DNA from: Glaucostegus cemiculus
Lineage: Eukaryota
Length of the DNA: 64,000 nt
Direction: 5' to 3'
Assembly (NCBI GenBank): GCA_976551045.1
Contig: CDPCPM010000050.1
Coordinates: 18,042,001 to 18,106,000, forward strand
Shown here: piece by piece, positions 9,500 to 54,753 of the stretch
Position numbering within the stretch: the stretch's first letter is position 1
Layout of the letters: each line of letters opens with the position of its first letter
Notes under the pieces: model-generated
The model's database searches: none
Told to the model about the DNA's origin: nothing
What the model saw: the letters and a program-made list of their open reading frames with translations, nothing else
Translations under genes and position numbers: made by a program

Positions 9500-10190
9500 T
9501 GCACACAAAGTGCTGGAGGAACTCAGCAGGTCAGGCAGCATCTGTGGAGGGAAATGAACAATCAAAGTTTTGGGACGAGACCCTTCATCAGGACTAGAAT
9601 GGAAGAGGGCAGAAGCCAGAATAAAAGGGGAGGGGGAGGGGGAGGAGCAAGAGCTGGCAGGTGATAGGTGAGTCCAGGTGAGAGGGGGAAGCTAGGTAGG
9701 TGGGGGAGTGGGTTGAAAGGGAATGATATCAGAAGCTGGGAGGTGATAGGTGGAAGAGGCAAAGGGCTGAAGAAGAAGGAATCTGATAGAAGAGGATAGT
9801 AGGCCATGGATTAAATGGTGGCAGGTCGTGAGGGCAGGGGAGGGGAAAGAGAAGGGGTGAAGGGGCCACAGGAATGAGGGAAGACAAAGTGGGGGGGGGG
9901 GAATTACCAGAAGAGAAATCAATGTTGATGATGTCAGGTTGGAAACTACCAATATGGAATATGATGTGGTACTCCTCCAACCTGCATCTGGCCTCAAAGT
10001 GGCAGTAGAGGAGGCCATGGATAGACATGTCGGTATGGGAATGGGAAGTGGAATTGAAGTGGCTGGCCACTGGGATATCCTGGCTGTTGCGGCAGATGGA
10101 GCATAGGTGCTTGATGAAGTGGTCCCCCAGACTACATCGGGTCTCACCAATGAGGTGGAGGCTGCACTGAGAGCACCGGATGCAATTTCA
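9500..10190 (-). mobile_element. Penelope-like element 3' fragment (GIY-YIG endonuclease C-terminus plus pseudo-LTR)
   Basis: Minus strand encodes CIRCSQCSLHLIGETR and ASHFNSTSHSHTDMSIHGLLYC...LEEYHIIFHIGSFQPDIINIDFS, typical of the PLE GIY-YIG tail. Decayed hammerhead motif at about 9560-9596. Confidence 0.8.
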
Positions 10191-15289: not shown

Positions 15290-15531
15290 AGCAACAAACA
15301 AGATGCTGGACGACTCAGTGGGTCAGGCAGCATCTATGGAGGGAAGTGAACAGTTGATGTGTTGGGTCTGGACTAAAAGATAGAGGGGAAGTAGCCAATA
15401 TAAAAAGGTGGGGGGGGGGGGAGATGGAGCAAGAGCTAGCAAGTGATAGGTGGATCCAGGAGAGGGAGGGTGATAGGCAGATGGAGGACGAAGAGTGGAA
15501 ATGGTGACAGAGGCTGGGAGGTAATAGGTGG
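15290..15531 (-). mobile_element. Penelope-like pseudo-LTR, left half (split by the LTR retrotransposon)
   Basis: Homologous to 9500-9750 (actcagtgggtcaggcagcatctatggaggg; gagcaagagctagcaagtgataggt) and continues at 22274. Confidence 0.75.
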
Positions 15532-16356
15532 TGTTACGAAGTAGCTTACTTAGGCAAATATCCCTTTTAGATGGGACATTGTGTGTGTGTGCAACGTATT
15601 ACGTCAGCAGAAGATAAGACTAACGTGGTGACATCATTACAAGAGAGAAAAAGATAAGAGAGAGACAGACAGACAGATGGAAAGAGAGAAGAAGGAGAGG
15701 CGGCAGCTTGTTTTGTTTCTGTCGTTGGAAGAAGGACAGTAACTGTGTTTGTCACTAAAATCCGTGGATGGATTTCTGGAGTAGTCCAGTGGAATTCACT
15801 TTGTCGGTAACCTGTAGAAGGACACAGGTGTTTGCGTGAACAACCACATTTTGGATGCTCTTCCGAGTGGCAGATACTGTGGAACAAAGTGACGGAATTC
15901 ACTTTGCTGCTAACCTGTAGAAGAACACAGGTATTTGCATGGACAGTCAACATACAAGGAGTTTTCAGGGTGAGAAAGTCACTACCGAGTAAGCCCTGAA
16001 GTGTCGTTTGAGTTTCGAGTGGAACATTTGGATTTCGTGATTTCTCTCTAATCTCTCTCTATATCTATATTTTGTCTTCGGTGGACATTGCTTGTGAAGA
16101 AGCCTTTATTCGTGTCATCTTACGGCTTACTGAACTGACTTTAAGACCTAATTCCTGGACTTGGAGTTTAGGAACTTGCCGCACATACACGACGAGTAGT
16201 TTTGGGGTTATAGTTAAAGATTTTAACATTTTATTGTGTACTAATATACTAACTTTTTATTCTTATTTTACGTATTATCGGATGTAGTTATTAATAAAGT
16301 AGTCTTAACACTGAAGTATGACTTGGTGTGCTTCTTTTGTTGCTGGTTTCGTAACA
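15532..16356 (+). repeat. 5' LTR (825 bp)
   Basis: TGTTACGAA...TTCGTAACA 9-bp terminal inverted repeat; AATAAA at 16293-16298; duplicated at offset +5913. Confidence 0.97.
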
Positions 16357-16360
16357 AAAT

Positions 16361-16378
16361 TGGGGGCTCGTCCGGGAT
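16361..16378 (+). promoter_or_regulatory. Primer-binding site complementary to the tRNA-Pro 3' end
   Basis: TGGGGGCTCGTCCGGGAT, the 18-nt tRNA-Pro PBS also used by Moloney MLV, 4 nt after the LTR end. Confidence 0.95.
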
Positions 16379-16528
16379 CTTCCCAAGATTAATGAGTGTC
16401 GTTCTGGGATCCAGTCCAAAGATTTGGCTTGCAGTCAAACTTAAGACTGGTGCTGGAGGTCTGAATTTGGACATTGGGGTTGGTCCAATAAATTTTCTTA
16501 ATTGGCGTGTGTGTGGAAACCAGTAGCA

Positions 16529-19500
16529 ATGGAAGCGTTTATGAAAAAACCCACACCAAGTGGATTGCAGAGAATGAAGAAGTCTGAATTATTAATTCTT
16601 GCTACAGAGCTAAAACTTATGACAGTAACACAATCTATGAGAAAAGCAGATATCCAGAGAATAATAGCTGGTCATTATGTGAAAATGCAAGTGTTTGAAG
16701 AGGGAGTAGTAAAACAATTTCCTGGCAGTGAACAAGCGATTTCTGATGCCCAAATTCAGTTAGCAAAGATAGAGGCTGAAAAGGAACAAGCAAGAATAGA
16801 ACAAAAGAAATTAGAGCTAGAATCTGAAAGGGAGCAAAGGAGACTAGAATCTGAAAGAGAGCAAAGGAAATTTGAGGCAGAGCAAAGGAAACTAGAGGCA
16901 GAGGAAAAGAGATTGAAATTTGAGGCTGAAGCAGAGCAAAGAAAGATAGATTCTGAACGAGAACGATTGAAATTTGAGGCTGAGGTAGAGCAAAGGAAAC
17001 TAGAGGTAGAGGAAAAGAGGATGGAATTGAGGAGGATGGAGCTGGAAAGTAAGGAAAGGGAGAAACAAAGGAAATATGATGTAAGACTGAAGAGAAAGAG
17101 TTCAGATTCTGATTCTGATGATGAGTTTTCAGCCAGTAGGGAGGTTAGATTAGTCCCTCCTTTTGATGAAGATCAGGTTGAACAGTATTTCCAACATTTT
17201 GAAAAGGTTGCTACGAGTCTAAGTTGGCCAAAGAGGAGATGGGCTCTTATGTTACAGAGTGTGATTAAAGGCAAAGCTCAAAAAGCTTATTCTGCTTTGT
17301 CTGTGGAGGAGGCAGCTGATTATGAAAAAGTAAAACAAGCAATCTTGAAAGTGTATGAGTTGGTACCAGAAGCGTACAGACAAAAGTTTAGAGACTTGAA
17401 GAAAACTTCAGATCAAACATACATGGAGTTTGCCAATGGAAAGAGAATATGTTTTGAACGATGGTGTATGGCGAAAGATGTAGTTGATGATTATAACAAA
17501 TTGACAGAATTAGTTTTAATAGAAGACTTTAAAAGATGTGTACCAGCTGAAATAGCTGCATACCTAAATGAAAAGAATGTGGACACTTTACAAGAAACTG
17601 CTAGGTTGGCAGATGATTATGCTTTAACCCATAAATACAGATGGGGACAACCTAAAACCTTTCAAAGGAGTTACAGAGACAATCCAGGTAAACCAGAGAT
17701 TAAATTGGGAGATAATCCGAAAGGGAAGGATGACAAGAAGCCAGTGCTGGAGAAACCTGCTGAGCGTCTATGTTATTACTGTAAGAAGCCTGGCCATATG
17801 AAATTTGACTGTTCTGTTTTGAAGAAAAAGCAAGAAAAGGGAGCTGTGCCAACTGCCTGTTGTCAAGTCATTAAACCCGGAAATAGAAGAGGTTTAGGGG
17901 AGGTTGTGAAAGATCAGTCCTTGCTAGAGATGAAGACTGAAAAGCTGGATGAGGTGAGGGAGGAATTCCGTTCATATGTATCAGAAGGTTTTGTTTCACT
18001 GAAGGATGGGTCACCCCAGGTGCCAGTGAAAATTCTTAGAGATACTGGAGCTTCCCAATCTCTCTTGCTGGACAGTGTTTTAAATTTTGGTAAGGAAACT
18101 GAAACTGGTGAGGTAAATCTAGTGCGAGGTGTTACAGGTGATACCATGTTCGTGCCTTTGCACAAGGTGTTTCTAAAATCAAAGTTTGTGGAAGGACCTG
18201 TTGAGATAGGGATACGACCAAGTTTACCAGTGGAGGGTGTTTCTTTGTTATTGGGAAATGACCTTGCAGGTGAAGAATTTGTTTCTGTGGTACAGTTAAC
18301 AACTAAACCAAGCTTTACTGAATCTGAGGATGACGCAGACATTTATCCATCTTGTGCAGTAACCCGAGCTAAAGCTAAAGAATTAGCTAAGGCCGAGAAT
18401 TCTACACAGTCTGAAATTGTTCCTTGTGATAGTCCTAAACAAGAGGAAAGTTATGATGATTTGTCTGACACTTTTTTGTCTTCATTGGAGGATCAAAGTT
18501 TTGGTAGTGAGCCTGAATACAAAGATTTGTCTTTGTCAAGGAAAGAATTTATGGTGGAACAGAATAAAGACCCTGAACTGACTGAGCTGAAGGGAAAAGC
18601 ACTCTCAAGTGAGGAAATTGAAAAAGTGCCAGTTGGATATTATGTCAAAGATGGATTGTTAATGAGGAAATGGAGACCGCCTCATGTCCCTGTGAATGAG
18701 GAGTGGGAAGTTATTCATCAGGTAGTAGTTCCTAAAGTTTATCGGAATGAGATTTTAAACCTGGCCCATAGCATGCCTTTAGGTGGTCATTTAGGGGTGA
18801 ATAAAACTGTGGGGAAGATCTTGAAACAATTCTATTGGCCTGGTTTGAGAAGGGATGTGGTGATGTTTTGTCGAACCTGTCATACATGTCAGATGGTAGG
18901 TAAACCAAATCAAAACCCCCCTGTGGCTCCTCTGAAACCCATTCCTGCTTTTGGTGAACCCTTTTCAAAGGTGATTGTGGATTGTGTTGGACCATTGCCA
19001 AAGTCTAAAGCTGGGAATCAATATTTGTTAACCATCATGTGTACAACTTCTAGATTTCCAGAGGCAATCCCACTTAGAAATATTAAGGCCAAGACAGTGT
19101 CAAAAGCTCTTTTAAAATTCTTTACGTTTGTTGGTTTGCCAAAAGAAATCCAATCTGATCAAGGCAGTAATTTTATGTCCAATTTGTTTCGGCAACTGAT
19201 CCATGAGGTGGGAGCAAAGCAGATTGTGTCATCTGCATATCACCCAGAATCTCAAGGAGCATTGGAGAGATTTCATTCTACTCTCAAAAATATGATGAAG
19301 ACTTATTGCTTTGAAAACACGAAGGATTGGGATGAAGGAATACATTTACTGTTGTTTGCCATTCGAGAGGCAATTCAGGAGTCATTAGGATTTAGTCCAT
19401 TTGAACTTGTATTTGGATATCAGGTGAGAGGACCTTTGGAGTTGTTAAGAGAACAATGGGTTAATGAAGAAGTGCAGTTGAGTCTATTGGATTATGTCCA

Positions 19501-21319
19501 AAAGTTTAAAACTCGGCTGAAGAAAGTCTGTGAGCTAGCGAAAGAGAATTTAAAAACAAGCCAGATTAGGATGAAGGAATATTATGACAAACGTGCTCAG
19601 CCAAGGATATACGCAGTGGGTCAAAAAGTGCTCGCATTTTTCCCTAGTCAGACAAATCCATTGCAGTCGCGGTTTGAAGGACCATTCATTATCGAATCTA
19701 AGATAGGCGACCTCAACTATTTGCTAAAAACCCCAGAGAGACGCAAGAAAACCCAACTCTGTCACGTAAATATGTTGAAACCGTATTATGAGAGGAATAC
19801 AGTGGTGGCCACAGTGAATGAGGTGAAAGATCCTGAGACATCTGTTGTTGACAATGAGGAAGGCCAATGTAGACCAAATATTGTTTCAGCAAGGCTAGAA
19901 AACCAAAATATCTTGGAGAACCTTGAGACAAAGCTGGACCATTTACAAGATTCACAGAAACAGCAGATGAAACAGTTACTTTTAAAATTTAAAAATCTTT
20001 TTCCCAATGTGCCAAACCAAACGTCAATAATTAGCCATGATGTTGACGTTGAGGATGCAAAACCAATCAAACAACACCCATATCGAATGAATGTGGATAA
20101 AAGTAAACTTGTTGATCAGGAAATTGAGTATATGTTAGAAAATGACATCATCAGACGTTCCAGTTCAAACTGGAGTTCGCCCTGTGTAATTGTGCCAAAA
20201 CCTGATGGGACCATTAGATTTTGTACAGATTACAGAAAAGTGAATGCTGTGACAAAGTCGGATGCATACCCCATTCCAAGGGTAGATGATTGCATAGATA
20301 GAGTGGGGACAGCCAAATTTCTTACAAAGATTGATTTACTAAAAGGGTACTGGTGTGTTCCATTAACAGAGAGAGGAAGGGAGATTTCTGCCTTTGCAAC
20401 CCCTTCTGGATTGTATGAATACAATGTTTTGCCATTTGGAATGAAAAATGCCCCAGCAACATTTCAAAGAATGATCAATTCAGTGATTCATGGGTTAAAA
20501 CATACAGATGCCTATATTGATGATCTAGTGACAGGGAATGATACGTGGGAGGATCACATCATTGCATTAGAAAGGTTGTTTGAAAGACTTTCCAAAGCTA
20601 ACCTTACAGTCAATTTGGCTAAAAGTGAATTTGGCCATGCCACTGTGACATATCTTGGTTATGTTGTAGGTCAAGGCAAGTTAGCACCTGTTCAGGCAAA
20701 AGTTCAAGTGATATCTGAATTCCCTGTTCCTACAGGTATCAGAACTGTTAGAAGATTTCTGGGAATGGTTGGATATTATCGGAAATTTTGTAAAAATTTT
20801 GCTGATATTGCTCTTCCCTTAACTAATCTTCTGAAGAAAGGAGTGAAATTTGTTTGGACAGAGTCTTGTCAAGAAGCATTTGAGAAGCTAAAAACCATTT
20901 TGTGTTACTATCCTGTGCTCAAGTCACCTGACTTTGAAAAGCCATTTTCATTAGCAGTAGATGCCAGTGATGAAGCTGCAGGAGCTGTGTTGTTGCAGAA
21001 GAGTGACCTTGATGATATTGACCACCCTGTAGCTTACTTTTCAAAGAAGTTTAATGAGCACCAGAAAAATTACTCTACAATAGAGAAAGAATTGCTTTCA
21101 CTTGTTTTAGCCTTACAACATTTCAATGTGTATGTTTGCCCAACTCAGAAACCATTGATTATATACACAGATCATAATCCGTTAGTGTTTCTGAGCCGAG
21201 TGAAAAACAAAAACAGACGGCTGTTAAACTGGAGTTTAATTCTGCAAGAATTTGATCTCATGATAATTCACATTAAAGGCAAAGATAATGTAATTGCTGA
21301 TTGCCTTTCTCGATGTTAA
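16529..21319 (+). CDS. Gag-Pol polyprotein (1596 aa): coiled-coil/capsid Gag, CCHC knuckle, protease, integrase, RT, RNase H
   Basis: gcaATGg start. CYYCKKPGHMKFDC (17771-17812); LRDTGAS protease (DTG 18041-18049); HHCC zinc finger from 18767; D..D-35-E integrase core (about 18980-19267); GPF motif; RT YIDD (20513-20524); RNase H DAS/EKELL/YTDH/ADCLSR. No stop or frameshift. Confidence 0.97.
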   Translation: MEAFMKKPTPSGLQRMKKSELLILATELKLMTVTQSMRKADIQRIIAGHYVKMQVFEEGVVKQFPGSEQAISDAQIQLAKIEAEKEQARIEQKKLELESEREQRRLESEREQRKFEAEQRKLEAEEKRLKFEAEAEQRKIDSERERLKFEAEVEQRKLEVEEKRMELRRMELESKEREKQRKYDVRLKRKSSDSDSDDEFSASREVRLVPPFDEDQVEQYFQHFEKVATSLSWPKRRWALMLQSVIKGKAQKAYSALSVEEAADYEKVKQAILKVYELVPEAYRQKFRDLKKTSDQTYMEFANGKRICFERWCMAKDVVDDYNKLTELVLIEDFKRCVPAEIAAYLNEKNVDTLQETARLADDYALTHKYRWGQPKTFQRSYRDNPGKPEIKLGDNPKGKDDKKPVLEKPAERLCYYCKKPGHMKFDCSVLKKKQEKGAVPTACCQVIKPGNRRGLGEVVKDQSLLEMKTEKLDEVREEFRSYVSEGFVSLKDGSPQVPVKILRDTGASQSLLLDSVLNFGKETETGEVNLVRGVTGDTMFVPLHKVFLKSKFVEGPVEIGIRPSLPVEGVSLLLGNDLAGEEFVSVVQLTTKPSFTESEDDADIYPSCAVTRAKAKELAKAENSTQSEIVPCDSPKQEESYDDLSDTFLSSLEDQSFGSEPEYKDLSLSRKEFMVEQNKDPELTELKGKALSSEEIEKVPVGYYVKDGLLMRKWRPPHVPVNEEWEVIHQVVVPKVYRNEILNLAHSMPLGGHLGVNKTVGKILKQFYWPGLRRDVVMFCRTCHTCQMVGKPNQNPPVAPLKPIPAFGEPFSKVIVDCVGPLPKSKAGNQYLLTIMCTTSRFPEAIPLRNIKAKTVSKALLKFFTFVGLPKEIQSDQGSNFMSNLFRQLIHEVGAKQIVSSAYHPESQGALERFHSTLKNMMKTYCFENTKDWDEGIHLLLFAIREAIQESLGFSPFELVFGYQVRGPLELLREQWVNEEVQLSLLDYVQKFKTRLKKVCELAKENLKTSQIRMKEYYDKRAQPRIYAVGQKVLAFFPSQTNPLQSRFEGPFIIESKIGDLNYLLKTPERRKKTQLCHVNMLKPYYERNTVVATVNEVKDPETSVVDNEEGQCRPNIVSARLENQNILENLETKLDHLQDSQKQQMKQLLLKFKNLFPNVPNQTSIISHDVDVEDAKPIKQHPYRMNVDKSKLVDQEIEYMLENDIIRRSSSNWSSPCVIVPKPDGTIRFCTDYRKVNAVTKSDAYPIPRVDDCIDRVGTAKFLTKIDLLKGYWCVPLTERGREISAFATPSGLYEYNVLPFGMKNAPATFQRMINSVIHGLKHTDAYIDDLVTGNDTWEDHIIALERLFERLSKANLTVNLAKSEFGHATVTYLGYVVGQGKLAPVQAKVQVISEFPVPTGIRTVRRFLGMVGYYRKFCKNFADIALPLTNLLKKGVKFVWTESCQEAFEKLKTILCYYPVLKSPDFEKPFSLAVDASDEAAGAVLLQKSDLDDIDHPVAYFSKKFNEHQKNYSTIEKELLSLVLALQHFNVYVCPTQKPLIIYTDHNPLVFLSRVKNKNRRLLNWSLILQEFDLMIIHIKGKDNVIADCLSRC

Positions 21320-21434
21320 ACGAAAGACCTATATTGTTACTAATCTGATATACTGTTAGTATGTAGAATGATAATTACTAACATCACTAACTATATGCGC
21401 AGATAATAATTTTCTTTGAAAAAAAATTCTGTTT

Positions 21435-21444
21435 GTGTGGGAGG
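21435..21444 (+). promoter_or_regulatory. Putative short, imperfect polypurine tract
   Basis: gtgtgggagg directly abutting the 3' LTR TG. Confidence 0.55.
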
Positions 21445-22269
21445 TGTTACGAAGTAGCTTACTTAGGCAAATATCCCTTTTAGATGGGACATTGTGTGTG
21501 TGTGCAACGTATTACGTCAGCAGAAGATAAGACTAACGTGGTGACATCATTACAAGAGAGAAAAAGATAAGAGAGAGACAGACAGACAGATGGAAAGAGA
21601 GAAGAAGGAGAGGCGGCAGCTTGTTTTGTTTCTGTCGTTGGAAGAAGGACAGTAACTGTGTTTGTCACTAAAATCCGTGGATGGATTTCTGGAGTAGTCC
21701 AGTGGAATTCACTTTGTCGGTAACCTGTAGAAGGACACAGGTGTTTGCGTGAACAACCACATTTTGGATGCTCTTCCGAGTGGCAGATACTGTGGAACAA
21801 AGTGACGGAATTCACTTTGCTGCTAACCTGTAGAAGAACACAGGTATTTGCATGGACAGTCAACATACAAGGAGTTTTCAGGGTGAGAAAGTCACTACCG
21901 AGTAAGCCCTGAAGTGTCGTTTGAGTTTCGAGTGGAACATTTGGATTTCGTGATTCCTCTCTAATCTCTCTCTATATCTATATTTTGTCTTCGGTGGACA
22001 TTGCTTGTGAAGAAGCCTTTATTCGTGTCATCTTACGGCTTACTGAACTGACTTTAAGACCTAATTCCTGGACTTGGAGTTTAGGAACTTGCCGCACATA
22101 CACGACGAGTAGTTTTGGGGTTATAGTTAAAGATTTTAACATTTTATTGTGTACTAATATACTAACTTTTTATTCTTATTTTACATATTATCGGATGTAG
22201 TTATTAATAAAGTAGTCTTAACACTGAAGTATGACTTGGTGTGCTTCTTTTGTTGCTGGTTTCGTAACA
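21445..22269 (+). repeat. 3' LTR (825 bp)
   Basis: Identical to the 5' LTR by eye except T16043/C21956 and G16272/A22185. Confidence 0.97.
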
Positions 22270-22273
22270 GTGG

Positions 22274-22470
22274 AGGCAACAAATGGCTGCAGATGATGGA
22301 ATCTGATAGGAAGAAAATGGTGGAGCATGGAACCAAATGAGAGAGGTGTAGTGGGCTGATGGGGATAGTGGGGGAGGGGACCCAGTGGGAGGAGTGTGTG
22401 AGTGATGGGCAGATGGAGTGGGTGGAGAAGGAGAAAGAAACAAGTGATGGGGGTGGGGGTGAGTGTAGGA
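22274..22470 (-). mobile_element. Penelope-like pseudo-LTR, right half
   Basis: Joining the flanks gives gggaggtaataggtggaggcaacaaatggctgcagatgatggaatctgatagg, which parallels 9738-9790. Confidence 0.75.
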
Positions 22471-23979: not shown

Positions 23980-24490
23980 ATGGTAAACGCGAGGCAGCTT
24001 GGAATAGGAGCTTTACAGAGGATTGGACTTAGTTTTTGTCTGATGCAACAATGCTCGTATCTGTCGCAGCTCTTCTCGACCATTTACTGCGTGTGTTTTT
24101 TGGGTTAGAAAAATAGGAAATTCCAAGTAAACCGATGCCATTTGGGCGGGCGGAGCGCACTCCTTCCTACTGCTTCAGTGTACGTGAAAGAGATGGACCT
24201 TCACATCCTGGAGCACCGGCTCCGGGTCACCAGCCTCAGTAAAGCCGGGCTGGAGCGCTACACGCACAGCCTCATCAAGCTGGTCTTCCTGCGGGACAGG
24301 ACAAGGTAAAGGCCCGGTCAGCGGCGACTCGGCCCCGGCTTGGTCCTGTTGCTGTCGGGTCAGGACAGCCCCAGCCCAACAGCTCGACCCACTCCACTCC
24401 CGACCGCACGTCCTCCCTCCGGCTGGTTATCCCCCTCCTCGTCCCGGCACGTCACACATCCTCAACCCACCCCACTCCTCGGCCTCGCAA
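23980..24490 (+). promoter_or_regulatory. CpG island / CASTOR promoter
   Basis: CpG-rich around exon 1; reverse CCAAT (attgg 24022-24026), TGATGCAAC at 24041-24049, GC box gggcgggcgg at 24144-24153. Confidence 0.7.
24193..24305 (+). CDS. CASTOR1: CASTOR1-like cytosolic arginine sensor, coding exon 1
   Basis: MDLHILEHRLRVTSLSKAGLERYTHSLIKLVFLRDRT(R); 113 nt; donor AG|gtaaag. The family is certain; the paralog call rests on PES1 linkage and diagnostic residues. Confidence 0.9.
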
Positions 24491-24514
24491 CTTCCCTTTA
24501 CCTTCCCTTCCTCG

Positions 24515-25780
24515 ACCCCCACCTCCCCCTCCCCTCCTCCCCCCCCACCTCCTCCCCCCCCCCCCCACCTCCTCCCCCCCCCCCCCACCTCCTCCCCCCC
24601 CCACACCTCCTCTCCCCCCCCACACCTCCTCTCCCCCCCCACACCTCCTCTCCCCCCCCACACCTCCTCTCCCCCCCCACACCTCCTCTCCCCCCCCACA
24701 CCTCCTCTCCCCCCCCACACCTCCCCCTCCCCACCCGTCCTCCCCCCCCAACCTCCCCCTCCCCACCCGTCCTCCCCCCCAACCTCCCCCTCCCCACCCG
24801 TCCTCCCCCCCCCAACCTCCCCCTCCCCACCCGTCCTCCCCCCCCAACCTCCCCCTCCCCACCCGTCCTCCTCCCCCAACCTCCCCCTCCCCACCCGTCC
24901 TCCCCCCCCACACCTCCCCCTCCCCACCCGTCCTCCCCCCCCCCCACACCTCCCCCTCCCCACCCGTCCTCCCCCCCCCCACACCTCCCCCTCCCCACCC
25001 GTCCTCCCCCCCCACACCTCCCCCTCCCCACCCGTCCTCCCCCCCCCACACCCCCCCCTCCCCACCCGTCCTCCCCCCCCCACACCCGTCCTCCCCCCCC
25101 CCACACCCGTCCTCCCCCCCCACACCCGTCCTCCCCCCCCCACACCCGTCCTCCCCCCCCCACACCCGTCCTCCCCCCCCCACACCCGTCCTCCCCCCCC
25201 ACACCCGTCCTCCCCCCCCACACCCGTCCTCCCCCCCCCCACACCTCCCCCTCCCCCACACCTCCCCCTCCCCACCCGTCCTCCCCCCCTCCCCACCCGT
25301 CCTCCCCCCCCCCTCCCCACCCGTCCTCCCCCCCCCTCCCCACCCGTCCTCCCCCCCCCTCCCCACCCGTCCTCCCCCCCCCTCCCCACCCGTCCTCCCC
25401 CCCCTCCCCACCCGTCCTCCCCCCCCCCTCCCCACCCGTCCTCCCCCCCCCTCCCCACCCGTCCTCCCCCCCCCTCCCCACCGTCCTCCCCCCCCCCCCC
25501 CCACCCGTCCTCCCCCCCCCCCTCCCCACCCGTCCTCCCCCCCCCCTCCCCACCCGTCCTCCCCCCCCCCTCCCCACCCGTCCTCTCCCCCCCACACCTC
25601 CCCGTCCTCCCCCCCCACACCTCCCCCTCCTCCCCCCCCACACCTCCCCCTCCTCCCCCCCCACACCTCCCCCTCCTCCCCCCCCACACCTCCCCCTCCT
25701 CCCCCCCCCACACCTCCCCCTCCTCCCCCCCCACACCTCCCCCTCCTCCCCCCCCACACCTCCCCCTCCCCCCACCCTGG
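24515..25780. repeat. C-rich compound minisatellite in CASTOR intron 1
   Basis: About 1.25 kb of blocks with units ccccccccacacctcctct, ctccccacccgtcctcccccc, cacacccgtcctccccccc and cacacctccccctcctccccc. Confidence 0.92.
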
Positions 25781-26489
25781 ACCACCCACCCAGCCCCTTC
25801 AACGCACCCCCGCCTTCCCCAACCATGAACCCCCCCCTTGCCCCTTGCTCCTCGCCCCCTTCTCCCAAACCAACCATCTGTGGCCTCGCCCCTTCCATTG
25901 ACTCAGAATGGGAAGCAATGTCCATTAGAAATATTTTATGGTTTTTTGGGAATCTAATTGTCGTGGCGTGATTTGTCTTTAGATTAAACATTTGCCTTAC
26001 AAAGACTCATTGAATATGTTCTTTATATTTTAGGTGGTATTAAATGGGCCACTCCCATCTTTCTCATACCAGAAATGTTCTATCATTTTGTCTTGTTCTT
26101 CAGTCCATCTCATTAAAGTATTGAGGTCTGGATTTTGTCACCAAACTCTCAGGTTTATTGCTACATTTGTGTTTTTTTTTTGGAGTACATTTAATCTAAC
26201 AATAAATTATGGTTCAGCTCTCCTCCCAGAGGACCCATAGGCTGCAGTTGATGTGATTCCAGTTGGCTGGAGGTGTGGGGTATTGCTGTTCATCTTTCTT
26301 TTGGTGGGGGGGGGGGGGCGGTGCGTAGAGGCAATTTGTCAGACAACCTCTAACCTTAATCATTAGCTAAATTGAGACAAATCTGTAGTTAGTATTTGAC
26401 AAGATATTTTTAATCTACATATTCAATTGACTAACATTACATGATTAAAGGAAGAAAACTTGTATTTACACAGCACCATCTGCATTTCC

Positions 26490-51273: not shown

Positions 51274-51467
51274 AGTTGCCTCAAACAGACTTCCTGCAAG
51301 TAGGAGAAGCAATCTGGCTGGCACTGAATGTTGTGTCCAATGGTCATTCTTCAACCAGCTCTCAGACAATTGGAGTGACAAAGATAGCAAAATCTGTGAT
51401 TGCTCCACTAGCTCAACATAACGTTTCGGTGTTTATGTTATCGACCTACCAGACTGACTTCATAATG
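51274..51467 (+). CDS. CASTOR1: CASTOR1-like exon 3
   Basis: ttttcag|AG; ELPQTDFLQVGEAIWLALNVVSNGHSSTSSQTIGVTKIAKSVIAPLAQHNVSVFMLSTYQTDFIM; 194 nt; donor gtgagc. Confidence 0.95.
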
Positions 51468-52457
51468 GTGAGCAGGCGTTCTATCTCTCTTGATTATTCT
51501 TGCACAGTATCCTGGAGGAAGCAACATTAATTATTTGCATTTGGCAAACTTCCTTTTACTGATAAAGAAAAGCCTGAATGTACAATAGCACTGCAGAATC
51601 TCATGTGTACAGCATTGTGGTGATGCTTTGAACAATAGGCACTGCAGTTTGGTTCTATTCAATCTAAAATGATTTTTCCTAATTTATCTCCCATGAAATT
51701 GTATCATGGTGTATGTGCTATGTTTTGTTCCTGTCACCAAGACCCAAAGGAAACGTAAGGGTGATTCCTTTCAAGTTGAGGGTTATACAGCAGGTCTTCC
51801 AAAGCTGAGCCAATCTTGGCCAGGGAAGGAACCAAGTTGAGAAGGGAGAGTTCATGTTTCAATATGATGCTTCAATGGGATAAGTAAGGTTAATCTGGAT
51901 TTCTAATTTAGAGTATGCCAGGAAACTGGAATGAGCACATTTTTGTTCAACTTTTTTTTAAAACAAAAAACAACCTACTAAATGAAATGAAACCAAGTAA
52001 CGTGGGTGAGGAATGACAATTCTCAGAATAAACATGAATTTTTGATATAGTTCACTATACCAGATTTTGCCTGGTGTAGTGGACTAATCGCCAGATTTTA
52101 ACATTTCACAAACATTTTTTCCGGTCGCATTAATTTATATTCGTTCAGTGGTAATTATGCTAGGGGAATCAGTTTTTGACAGGGTCTTGTCTTTGTGCCA
52201 GGCACTTATGTGCACATTACAGCAGTCTCATGTGAACAAGCTCCCATAATGTTATTACATTGACTTTTTTGAATTGTGGACATAATCAACTTGTGGACAT
52301 CTGTTAAAACGAAACCCTGTCATGACTCAGAAATGGCCTGTATAGTTTTGGTGAGAAAATTTACAGGGTGAAGACTTGGGTCCACTTTTTTTTTACAATG
52401 TGCTTTGAACCAAAACTTAATAGTGTATTGACTGTGTTAGTGATTATCTTTAAGTGT

Positions 52458-54753
52458 ATGATTGAGTTCAGAATGAAATTTGAAAATGAGAAGCTGATGA
52501 CTGGAGTGTCGACATTTCAGTGGAACAAGGGGAATTACAGAAGGATGAGAGAAGAGTTGGTCCAGATTGATTGGAAATATAAGCTTGCTGGAGGGACAGC
52601 AGAACATAAATGGGTGGACTTTAAGCAAGTAATAAGGAAAATGCAGGATAGACACATTCCAAGAAAAAAGAAGGTTTTAAATGGAAAAAGGACACAAATG
52701 TGGATAACGAGAGAGGTGAAAGTTAAAATAAGAGCAAAAGGGAGGCCATATAAGGAAGCAAGAAAAAGCGGGAAAACAGAAGACTGGGAAACTTTTAAGA
52801 ACCTACAGAAAGAAACTAAGAAGGTCATTAGAAAAGAAAAGAGAAATTATGAAATGAAATTGGCAGAGAACATTCAAAAGGATACTAAGAGTTTTTTTAA
52901 ATATATAAGAAGTAAAAGAGAGACGCGGGTTGATATAGGACCGATAGAAAATGATGCGGGAGAGATTATTATGGATGATAAAGAGATGGCGGAGGTGCTA
53001 AATCAGTATTTTGCGTTGGTCTTCACGGTGGAAGATATTAACAATATACCGGTTAGTCAAGGGTCTCGAGGGACGTAATTAAGTACAGTTAAGGTTACTA
53101 GAGAGAAAGTGTTGGGGAAGCTAAATGGGTTAAAGACTGATAAGTTTCCGGGACCGGATGAGATACATCTCCGTGTACTGAAGGAAGTAGCTTTAGAAAT
53201 AGTGGAGGCATTAGTGATAACTTTTCAGGAATCGATAGACGCTTGAGAGGTTCCGGAGGACTGGAGGGCCGTGAATGTAGTTCCATTGTATAAGAAAGGT
53301 GGGAGACAGCACAAAGGAAATTACAGACCTATCAGTCTTACGTCTGTGGTGGGGAAGATACTGGAATCGATCCTCAAGGACGAGGTGATGGGATACTTGG
53401 AGGCGCAAGGCAAGATAGGTCCTAGTCAACATGGGTTCGTGAAGGGAAGATCCTGCCTGACCAATTTATTGGAGTTTTTTTGAAGAAATCTCAGGCAGGG
53501 TGGATAAGGGAGAGGCCGTAGATGTAGTGTATTTAGACTTTCAGAAGGCATTCGACAAGGTGCCACACAAAAGACTAATTAGTAAGATGAGAGAGCACGG
53601 AATAACAGGCAGGATAACAGAATGGGTGGAGCATTGGCTGGATGGCAGGAAACAGGGTGGGAATAAAAGGTTCCTGTTCTGGTTGGCTGCCGGTTACTAG
53701 TGGTGTTCCGCAGGGGTCGGTGTTGGGGCCCCTTCTTTTTACCTTGTATATTAATGATTTAGACGAAGGAATTAATGGGTTTGTGGCCAAGTTTGCAGAT
53801 GACACTAAGATTGGGGGGGGGGGGGAGTGGAGAGTATTTGAGGAGACAGGAAAGTTACAGAGATACTTGGATATTCTAGGAGAATGGGCGAAGAAATGGC
53901 AGATGAGGTTCAACGTGGAAAAATGTGCAGTTGTACACTTCGGAAGTAGAAATGGATGGGCAGACTATTATCTAGAAGGAGATAAAATTGGAAGCACAGA
54001 AGTACAAAGGGACTTGGGGGTGCTCGTACAGGATAACCTAAAGGTTAACCGCCAGTTTGGATCGGCAGTAAGGAAAGCGAATGCTATGTTGGCATTTATT
54101 TCGAAGGGTATAGTATATAAAAGCAAGGAAGTGTTGATGAGGCTATACAGGGCACTGGTGAGGCCTCACTTGGAGTACTGTGTGCAGTTTTGGGTCCCAT
54201 ACCTTAGGAAGGATGTGCTGATGTTGGAGAGGGTTCAGAGGAGATTTACTAGGATGATTCCTGGGATGAAAAAGTTTACATATGAGGAGCGACTGTCGTC
54301 ACTTGGACTGTACTCGTTGGAGTACAGAAGAATGAGAGGGGACCTAATAGAAATGTACAAGATGTTGAAAGGAATGGACCAAGTGAATGTGATCAAGCTG
54401 TTTCCCTTGGTGGGGGAATCCAGGACTAGAGGACACAACCTTAGAATTAGAGGAAGCAGGTTCAAAACAGAGATAAGGAGGAATTTCTTTAGCCAGAGGG
54501 TGGTGAACCTGTGGAACTCCTTACCACAGAAAGCAGTGGAAGCCAGATCATTGGGGATATTCAAGAAGAAAATAGATAGATATCTAATTGGTCAAGGTAT
54601 CAAGGGATATGGAGATAAGGCAGGGATTTGGACTTAGAATAGGGTTGTTTTTTTTTCCTCATCCTCTTTTTTTCCCCCCACCCTCCCTTCCCTTTGGAGC
54701 AGACTCGATGGGCCGACTGGCCTGCTTCTGCTCCATTATCTTGTGATCTTGTG
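52458..54753 (+). mobile_element. 5'-truncated, relatively young CR1 LINE (disrupted ORF2 plus 3' UTR)
   Basis: NYRPISLTSVVGK, YLDFQKAFDKVPH, GVPQGSVLGP, FADD, VRPHLEYCVQFW. Stops at about 53076 and 53244, frameshifts near 53480 and 53655. Tail gatgggccgactggcctgcttctgctcc...(tcttgtga)x2. Confidence 0.93.

Follow-up and report, generated by a model that had tools for sequence, protein, structure and literature searches.

An in-frame integrase-less form accounts for nearly half of a Gmr1-like retrotransposon family in the ray Glaucostegus cemiculus and probably spreads with borrowed integrase

Introduction

Gmr1-like elements are long terminal repeat (LTR) retrotransposons of the Ty3/Gypsy type in which integrase (IN) is encoded 5′ of reverse transcriptase (RT) and the LTRs end in characteristic motifs (PMC3601003); a SCAN capsid combined with the domain order (bioRxiv 10.1101/2025.03.03.638093) and a single open reading frame (ORF) (PMC11117352) have also been given as criteria of the clade. 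In this study, we analysed a 64,000-nt stretch of the genome of the ray Glaucostegus cemiculus (GenBank assembly GCA_976551045.1, contig CDPCPM010000050.1, positions 18,042,001 to 18,106,000 of the forward strand; hereafter the window), which carries one apparently Gmr1-like element, together with the family to which this element belongs. As far as genomic sequence can tell, nearly half of the family lacks integrase, keeps Gag, protease (PR), RT and RNase H in frame, and probably spreads by borrowing the integrase of complete copies.

Defective partners of LTR elements have been described in several organisms. The mouse IAP IΔ1 form, which has an internal deletion and one open fusion ORF, is non-autonomous and very successful, and its fusion protein is cis-acting (PMC6466679). 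In cattle, competent and defective forms of ERVK[2-1-LTR] (C/D) recombine freely, with a linkage of about 1 at the boundary only, a pattern that has been read as co-packaging and trans-complementation (PMC10924933). Wheat (RLG_Sabrina_SA and Wilma; PMC9744471) and barley (BARE-2, via PMC13570524) have semi-autonomous partners with some of their proteins still encoded.

Results

Exact-pattern searches of the genome assembly (2.85 Gb) returned 3,877 LTR starts and 2,641 junctions between LTR and primer-binding site (PBS), with zero control matches, and we estimate the family at ~2,500 copies, internally complete or partly deleted. The spacing of the LTRs across the genome is bimodal, and the short class lacks one internal segment (Table 1). 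Two of the catalytic residues of integrase, the second Asp and the Glu, are lost with this deletion, as is its C-terminal domain, and the Gag-PR-RT-RNase H frame is retained. At the common junction the net loss is 795 nt, which preserves the frame; at a rare junction 793 nt are lost and the frame is shifted. Exact junction counts in the genome were 1,150 for the in-frame deletion, 11 for the frameshifted deletion and 1,364 for the integrase-bearing form, the search pattern for the last being degenerate so that it may take in older copies. The short microhomology at the breakpoints fits an origin by template switch.

One hundred loci were fetched: 17 stretches were best LTR matches, and the other 83 were picked by their position on the first contigs. 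Segmental duplicates with shared flanks made up five of the 100. At the 75 non-duplicate loci with two LTRs (including the window), the sequences at the two ends matched over 4 bp in 59 cases and over 5 bp in seven, with no match in nine. A target-site duplication (TSD) of at least 4 bp, with an identical C-T-A-G bias, was found for both forms, at 32 of 36 two-LTR loci of the deleted and 25 of 29 of the integrase-bearing form. Over all 66 TSDs the target preference was palindromic: the duplication itself favoured C-T-A-G, positions −5 and −3 favoured T, and positions +3 and +5 favoured A. Among the position-picked loci, the full-length ORF was open in 12 of 40 deleted and four of 29 integrase-bearing copies (Fisher p = 0.15) and in none of the eight frameshifted ones. 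The median LTR divergence was 0.0036 for deleted and 0.0085 for integrase-bearing copies (p = 0.004); deleted copies are no older than complete copies. The deleted form was about tenfold denser on contigs C1 (21 in 11.3 Mb) and C3 (19 in 13.1 Mb) than on C5 or C12 (7 in 46 Mb), several of them being segmental duplicates. Three frameshifted deleted copies (L041, L042 and L048) have a further common loss of 1.07 kb that covers the protease, and look like a fully non-autonomous offshoot.

The relation between the two forms was analysed in 73 aligned copies, with a four-haplotype test on 64 position-picked rows. Every one of the 36 in-frame deleted copies in the alignment had the same junction and flanking variants. 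The r2 between a variant and the deletion was 0.5–0.9 within ~70 nt and ~0.01–0.07 elsewhere. All four haplotypes were present at 149 of 165 distant single-nucleotide polymorphisms versus one of 13 near ones, and at 127 of 139 versus none of 11 when CpG sites were removed. The deletion therefore had a single origin and behaves now as an allele. Trees of the LTR, Gag, RT and RNase H mixed both forms (17–20 label changes versus shuffled means of 19–23), whereas the tree adjoining the junction sorted them (three label changes versus 21 shuffled). The deleted and complete forms recombine freely beyond ~100 nt from the junction. A separate clonal lineage of deleted copies is ruled out by this intermixing. 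Recombination during reverse transcription has been reviewed (PMC6894440); gene conversion between genomic copies may be an alternative source of the mosaics.

Variants in the deleted copies were compared for signs of selection. For variants present in at least three deleted copies, dN/dS was 0.04 in RT, 0.12 in RNase H and 0.11 in the capsid, compared with 0.45–0.62 for singletons in the same domains. Variants private to deleted copies and present in at least three of them were synonymous in 11 cases and non-synonymous in three, against 113:275 among singletons (p = 0.0003). In the genome counts, in-frame hybrids of the junction numbered 26 and 120, compared with 11 frameshifted junctions among 1,161, the crossover windows being similar in size.

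Loss of integrase is apparently not confined to the ray. Among the 120 homologues listed (of 3,179 found), the integrase core is missing from 23, all ENA records, in which the rest of the ORF is open. They fall into three RT clades with distinct breakpoints, comprising four proteins (P0084–P0086 and P0088), 18 proteins (from P0090 to P0121) and one protein (P0083), some rows possibly being the same locus; six were aligned in detail. All three clades retain part or all of the integrase C-terminal domain, unlike the ray form. By a protein search, which reveals in-frame losses only, as many as three further Gmr1-like lineages seem to have lost integrase in frame independently.

The window element appears to be an additional member of the known Gmr1-like clade of Ty3/Gypsy retrotransposons, as the original prediction had proposed. 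Its RT matched Pfam RVT_1, with no RVT_2 match at E 0.01 and hence no sign of the Ty1/copia affinity named there as contrary evidence, and the best of 219 solved-structure matches was Ty3 Gag-Pol (E 1e-128). Integrase lies 5′ of RT-RNase H in a single fused Gag-Pol ORF, the capsid profile suggested for Gag scored above its cut-off (Table 1), and the LTR ends match the rGmr1 motifs TGTNANR and CGTNACA (Table 3 of PMC3601003). In an RT-RNase H tree of 125 rows (FastTree), the element grouped with the integrase-first rows, and the 121 such rows stood apart from four Gypsy polyproteins with support 1.0; these outgroups were plant and arachnid proteins, two of them tandem fusions, and none of the rows was named Gmr1. 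The nearest named relative is LOC127579869 of the sawfish Pristis pectinata, with the same domain order and 93% identity over RT-RNase H (~80% overall). This and related RefSeq proteins (P0002, P0122–P0135) are annotated as uncharacterized host genes, and the integrase deletion was seen in none of the 15 listed members, several of which are too short to tell.

The structure of the window element (Table 1) agrees with what had been described from the letters alone, namely a stop-free ORF with all motifs from CCHC to RNase H, a perfect TSD and PBS, and LTRs that differ at two positions; alignment of the LTRs gave two substitutions over 825 bp and zero gaps. The Pfam order in the ORF is SCAN, zf-CCHC, Integrase_H2C2, rve (aa 811–906), SH3, RVT_1 and RT_RNaseH, and the integrase catalytic residues are D818, D877 and E913, with 35 residues between the last two. 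An older repeat elsewhere in the window has matches to both flanks in adjoining parts (9502–9753 and 9760–9810), in register with a 4-bp duplication at insertion.

Table 1 Features of the window element, its flanks and its neighbour (positions within the window)
Feature	Position	Strand	Remarks
Older host repeat split by insertion	15295..15531, resumes 22274..22331	+	repeat match in window
Left TSD	15528..15531	+	4 bp, GTGG
5′ LTR	15532..16356	+	825 bp, TG...CA; AATAAA at 16293
PBS for tRNA-Pro	16361..16378	+	18/18 nt, after 4-nt spacer
Single Gag-PR-IN-RT-RNase H ORF	16529..21319	+	1596 aa, stop-free
Glu/Arg/Lys-rich repeat stretch in Gag	16739..17098	+	aa 71–190; copies differ in its length
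SCAN-like capsid domain	17366..17635	+	aa 280–369; PF02023, 45.1 bits vs cut-off 27, E 9e-12
CCHC zinc knuckle	17771..17812	+	aa 415–428; Pfam zf-CCHC and motif
Protease DTG	18041..18049	+	aa 505–507; motif alone, Pfam protease match absent
Integrase	18728..19786	+	HHCC aa 747–787, D-D(35)-E core, SH3-like C-terminal domain
Segment missing from integrase-less sisters	19021..19813	+	second Asp, Glu and C-terminal domain of integrase; short microhomology at edges
RT (RVT_1)	20192..20665	+	aa 1222–1379; YIDD aa 1329–1332 at 20513–20524
RNase H	20930..21316	+	four acidic residues present
Putative polypurine tract (PPT)	21435..21444	+	short purine-rich tract 5′ of 3′ LTR; placed by position, kept among copies
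3′ LTR	21445..22269	+	825 bp, 2 differences vs 5′ LTR
Right TSD	22270..22273	+	4 bp, GTGG
CASTOR-family host gene, first coding exon	24193..24305	+	1,924 bp 3′ of 3′ LTR; neighbour, outside element

All 18 nt of the PBS can pair with the 3′ end, CCA included, of a tRNA-Pro gene in the same genome. A tRNA-Pro-like gene (L101:1434–1524) has an intron-like 17-nt insert just 3′ of the anticodon, and ARAGORN in bacterial mode called it Gln. The tRNA-Pro 3′ motif has 309 exact matches in the genome, one of which overlaps an LTR-PBS junction (C7:9181578). A spacing of two bases between LTR and PBS is usual. In the window element the two are four bases apart (16357–16360), as in nearly all copies, and integrase may trim a longer LTR end.

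The CASTOR-family gene downstream of the element has ACT_7 exons in and beyond the window, a further part of it lying at 51309–51482 (+), and a paralogue on contig C281; its best matches are CASTOR1 (E 2e-8 to 6e-8) and CASTOR2 (4e-6). The LTR could affect the promoter of this gene. Long C-rich and G-rich low-complexity arrays occupy 24438–26000, directly 3′ of the first CASTOR exon, and 574–1262, and broken RVT_1 frames at 52398–54637 are likely an old LINE.

Discussion

LTR elements are copied by tRNA-primed reverse transcription in a particle that contains two RNAs, and integrase inserts the cDNA. The integrase-less copies of the ray family probably exploit this cycle: RNAs of the deleted and complete forms would be packaged in one particle, RT would switch templates between them, and the integrase encoded by the complete copy would insert the cDNA of the deleted form. 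Two features expected of a trans-complemented partner were found, namely a high-copy shared internal deletion with normal insertion scars and recombination with the complete form. By analogy with IAP IΔ1, the frame may be kept by selection, with translation of its own RNA helping the deleted copy in cis, a step that is less certain than the supply of integrase in trans. Selection for an open frame would be expected because integrase lies 5′ of RT, and only an in-frame loss leaves RT translated. The junction ratio and the synonymous excess among private variants speak for a need of own translation in cis; shared disruptions and recombination speak against it.

Several observations weigh against this interpretation. 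The genome counts include segmental duplicates and miss diverged copies. The dN/dS of shared variants is also low (0.16) in the integrase remnant, for which a need for RT alone is no explanation; since the two forms recombine, the purifying selection seen in deleted copies may date from time spent inside complete copies, and variants were judged private against just 29 integrase-bearing copies. The junction ratio of ~100:1 also follows from one in-frame founder spreading first. Moreover, five of the 36 deleted copies (L009, L038, L055, L091 and L097) share a frameshift caused by the loss of 2 nt at codon 1582, on the N-terminal side of the final RNase H Asp, and three of the eight frameshifted copies share the additional 1.07-kb deletion; since such shared disruptions have spread, it is possible that all proteins act in trans. 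Finally, the homologues from other lineages are known as protein sequences. The codon-1582 loss itself is either inherited or a slippage hot spot, and the frameshifted junction may be either the ancestral state or a recombinant that recurs.

Given these points, the deleted form could be a plain non-autonomous passenger that obtains all proteins in trans, its frame being open by founder chance and refreshed by recombination. The free recombination would bring in purified alleles, the RNase H frameshift and the larger deletion have each reached several copies, and the cattle ERVK D-type spreads without an intact ORF (PMC10924933). We nevertheless regard this explanation as unlikely. The frameshifted junction is rare beside in-frame hybrids that arose from crossover windows of similar size, the shared private variants are mainly synonymous, and the other disruptions are nearly all singletons; independent lineages have lost integrase in frame too, though by a search that shows in-frame cases only.

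The original prediction had gone further for the window copy itself, taking it as very recent, transposition-competent and possibly polymorphic. Its ORF is open, all catalytic motifs and the PBS are present, only two LTR differences were found, and sister copies 99.8% and 99.7% identical, with identical LTR pairs, lie at other flanks. Because of these sisters the subfamily of the window copy is among the youngest, and the near-identical copies that had been anticipated do exist. It nonetheless seems quite doubtful that the window copy itself is a source element, still mobile and polymorphic today. The copy has four private changes of post-insertion type, two between the LTRs and two non-synonymous ones in integrase (codons 964 and 1027); codon 964 is otherwise uniform, both among the sisters (26 of 26) and among the four distant relatives with integrase that were aligned. 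At the mutation rate of the epaulette shark (7e-10 per base per generation; PMC10587355), LTRs would take ~1.7 million generations (0.2–6.3 million) to gain two differences, and identical LTRs allow up to 2.6 million, the shark rate being possibly different from that of this ray and RT errors shortening the age. Neither an empty allele nor an alternative haplotype of the insertion was present in the single assembly, where the flank is single-copy. No Logan contig of runs X1, X3, X5 or X7 bridged the left junction, which is located in a common repeat, and no RNA data sets were among the holders of sequence runs listed. The relatives in runs X3 and X5 were mostly 90–95% identical. In run X1, the summed contig depth was 18–31 thousand for the integrase core and 65–107 thousand for other pol bins. 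Such a drop is expected where the deleted form is common, but depth is not a copy number, the deletion joint was absent from the rows listed, and the result was not counted as evidence.

It is highly improbable that the deleted form enters new places independently of integrase, its cDNA recombining with copies already present (as reported for fission yeast Tf elements), or that it multiplied by segmental duplication. Integrase-independent mobilisation is cited in PMC13570524, and shared flanks were indeed seen at the few duplicated loci; however, 32 of the 36 deleted two-LTR loci have a TSD of their own, with distinct flanks and the same target bias as complete copies. Conversion of a complete copy by cDNA, which would keep an old TSD, is conceivable, but the LTR pairs of deleted copies are younger. 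That a spliced transcript was reverse-transcribed repeatedly from many complete copies is hardly credible and was rejected, for although AG adjoins the segment end, GT stands at the left edge in some complete copies and the forms are mixed in trees, a GT-AG cut removes 794 nt, leaving the junction one base off the one observed, and tightly linked variants on either side point to a single origin.

Borrowed integrase, the explanation that we favour, can be extended to a more general proposal, which we advance tentatively and with more doubt than confidence: integrase may be a shared good in Gmr1-like particles, with integrase-only cheaters arising recurrently because integrase is encoded 5′ of RT in a single ORF. 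Such cheaters would retain all the other proteins, act as an allele among elements that recombine freely, and be held near half of the copies by frequency-dependent selection. If true, semi-autonomous LTR elements of this kind would form a class that recurs across animals, seen so far in the ray and in up to three unrelated Gmr1-like lineages.

The single copy in the window is ordinary; it is the family that separates retroelement proteins acting on their own RNA from those open to sharing. A naturally arisen loss of integrase only is found at ~46% of thousands of copies, compared with ~1% for its frameshifted twin. As a large natural data set, the family lends itself to the study of how cheaters fare and how templates are switched, in a vertebrate retrotransposon that counts the source of the SCAN domain among its relatives. 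Half of such families escapes annotation pipelines that demand an integrase domain, and LTR identity exaggerates youth in slow-mutating sharks and rays.

In its general features the ray family resembles the Gmr1-like (rGmr1) clade, with a SCAN capsid, the order PR-IN-RT-RNase H, a fused ORF of 1500–1630 aa, a length of 6–6.7 kb and the LTR end motifs, as described in PMC3601003, bioRxiv 10.1101/2025.03.03.638093 and PMC11117352. It differs in its LTR of 825 bp, in its thousands of copies (6–20 for pufferfish Gmr elements; PMC11117352) and in the abundant in-frame integrase-less form, which goes unmentioned in the available text of these three sources. Our literature search, which lay outside most subscription journals, Repbase Reports and supplements, found no report of this family or of a Gmr1-like subfamily with an in-frame deletion of integrase only.

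The closest analogues of the ray pair are mouse IAP IΔ1 and cattle ERVK C/D. IAP IΔ1 lacks portions of gag and pol and depends on Gag and Pol provided in trans (PMC6466679), whereas the ray form loses integrase alone. The cattle D-type belongs to an endogenous retrovirus, has no intact ORF and carries a swapped central segment, and its mobilisation has been measured (PMC10924933), whereas the ray family is known from sequence. Among the plant partners, Sabrina_SA keeps Gag-protease, is without RT and integrase, and has hardly any homology to its helper (PMC9744471), and BARE-2 is without Gag (according to a title cited in PMC13570524). Semi-autonomous partners as such are therefore known; what appears to be new in the ray is a partner that has shed only integrase, still has Gag-PR-RT-RNase H in one frame and makes up about half of its family.

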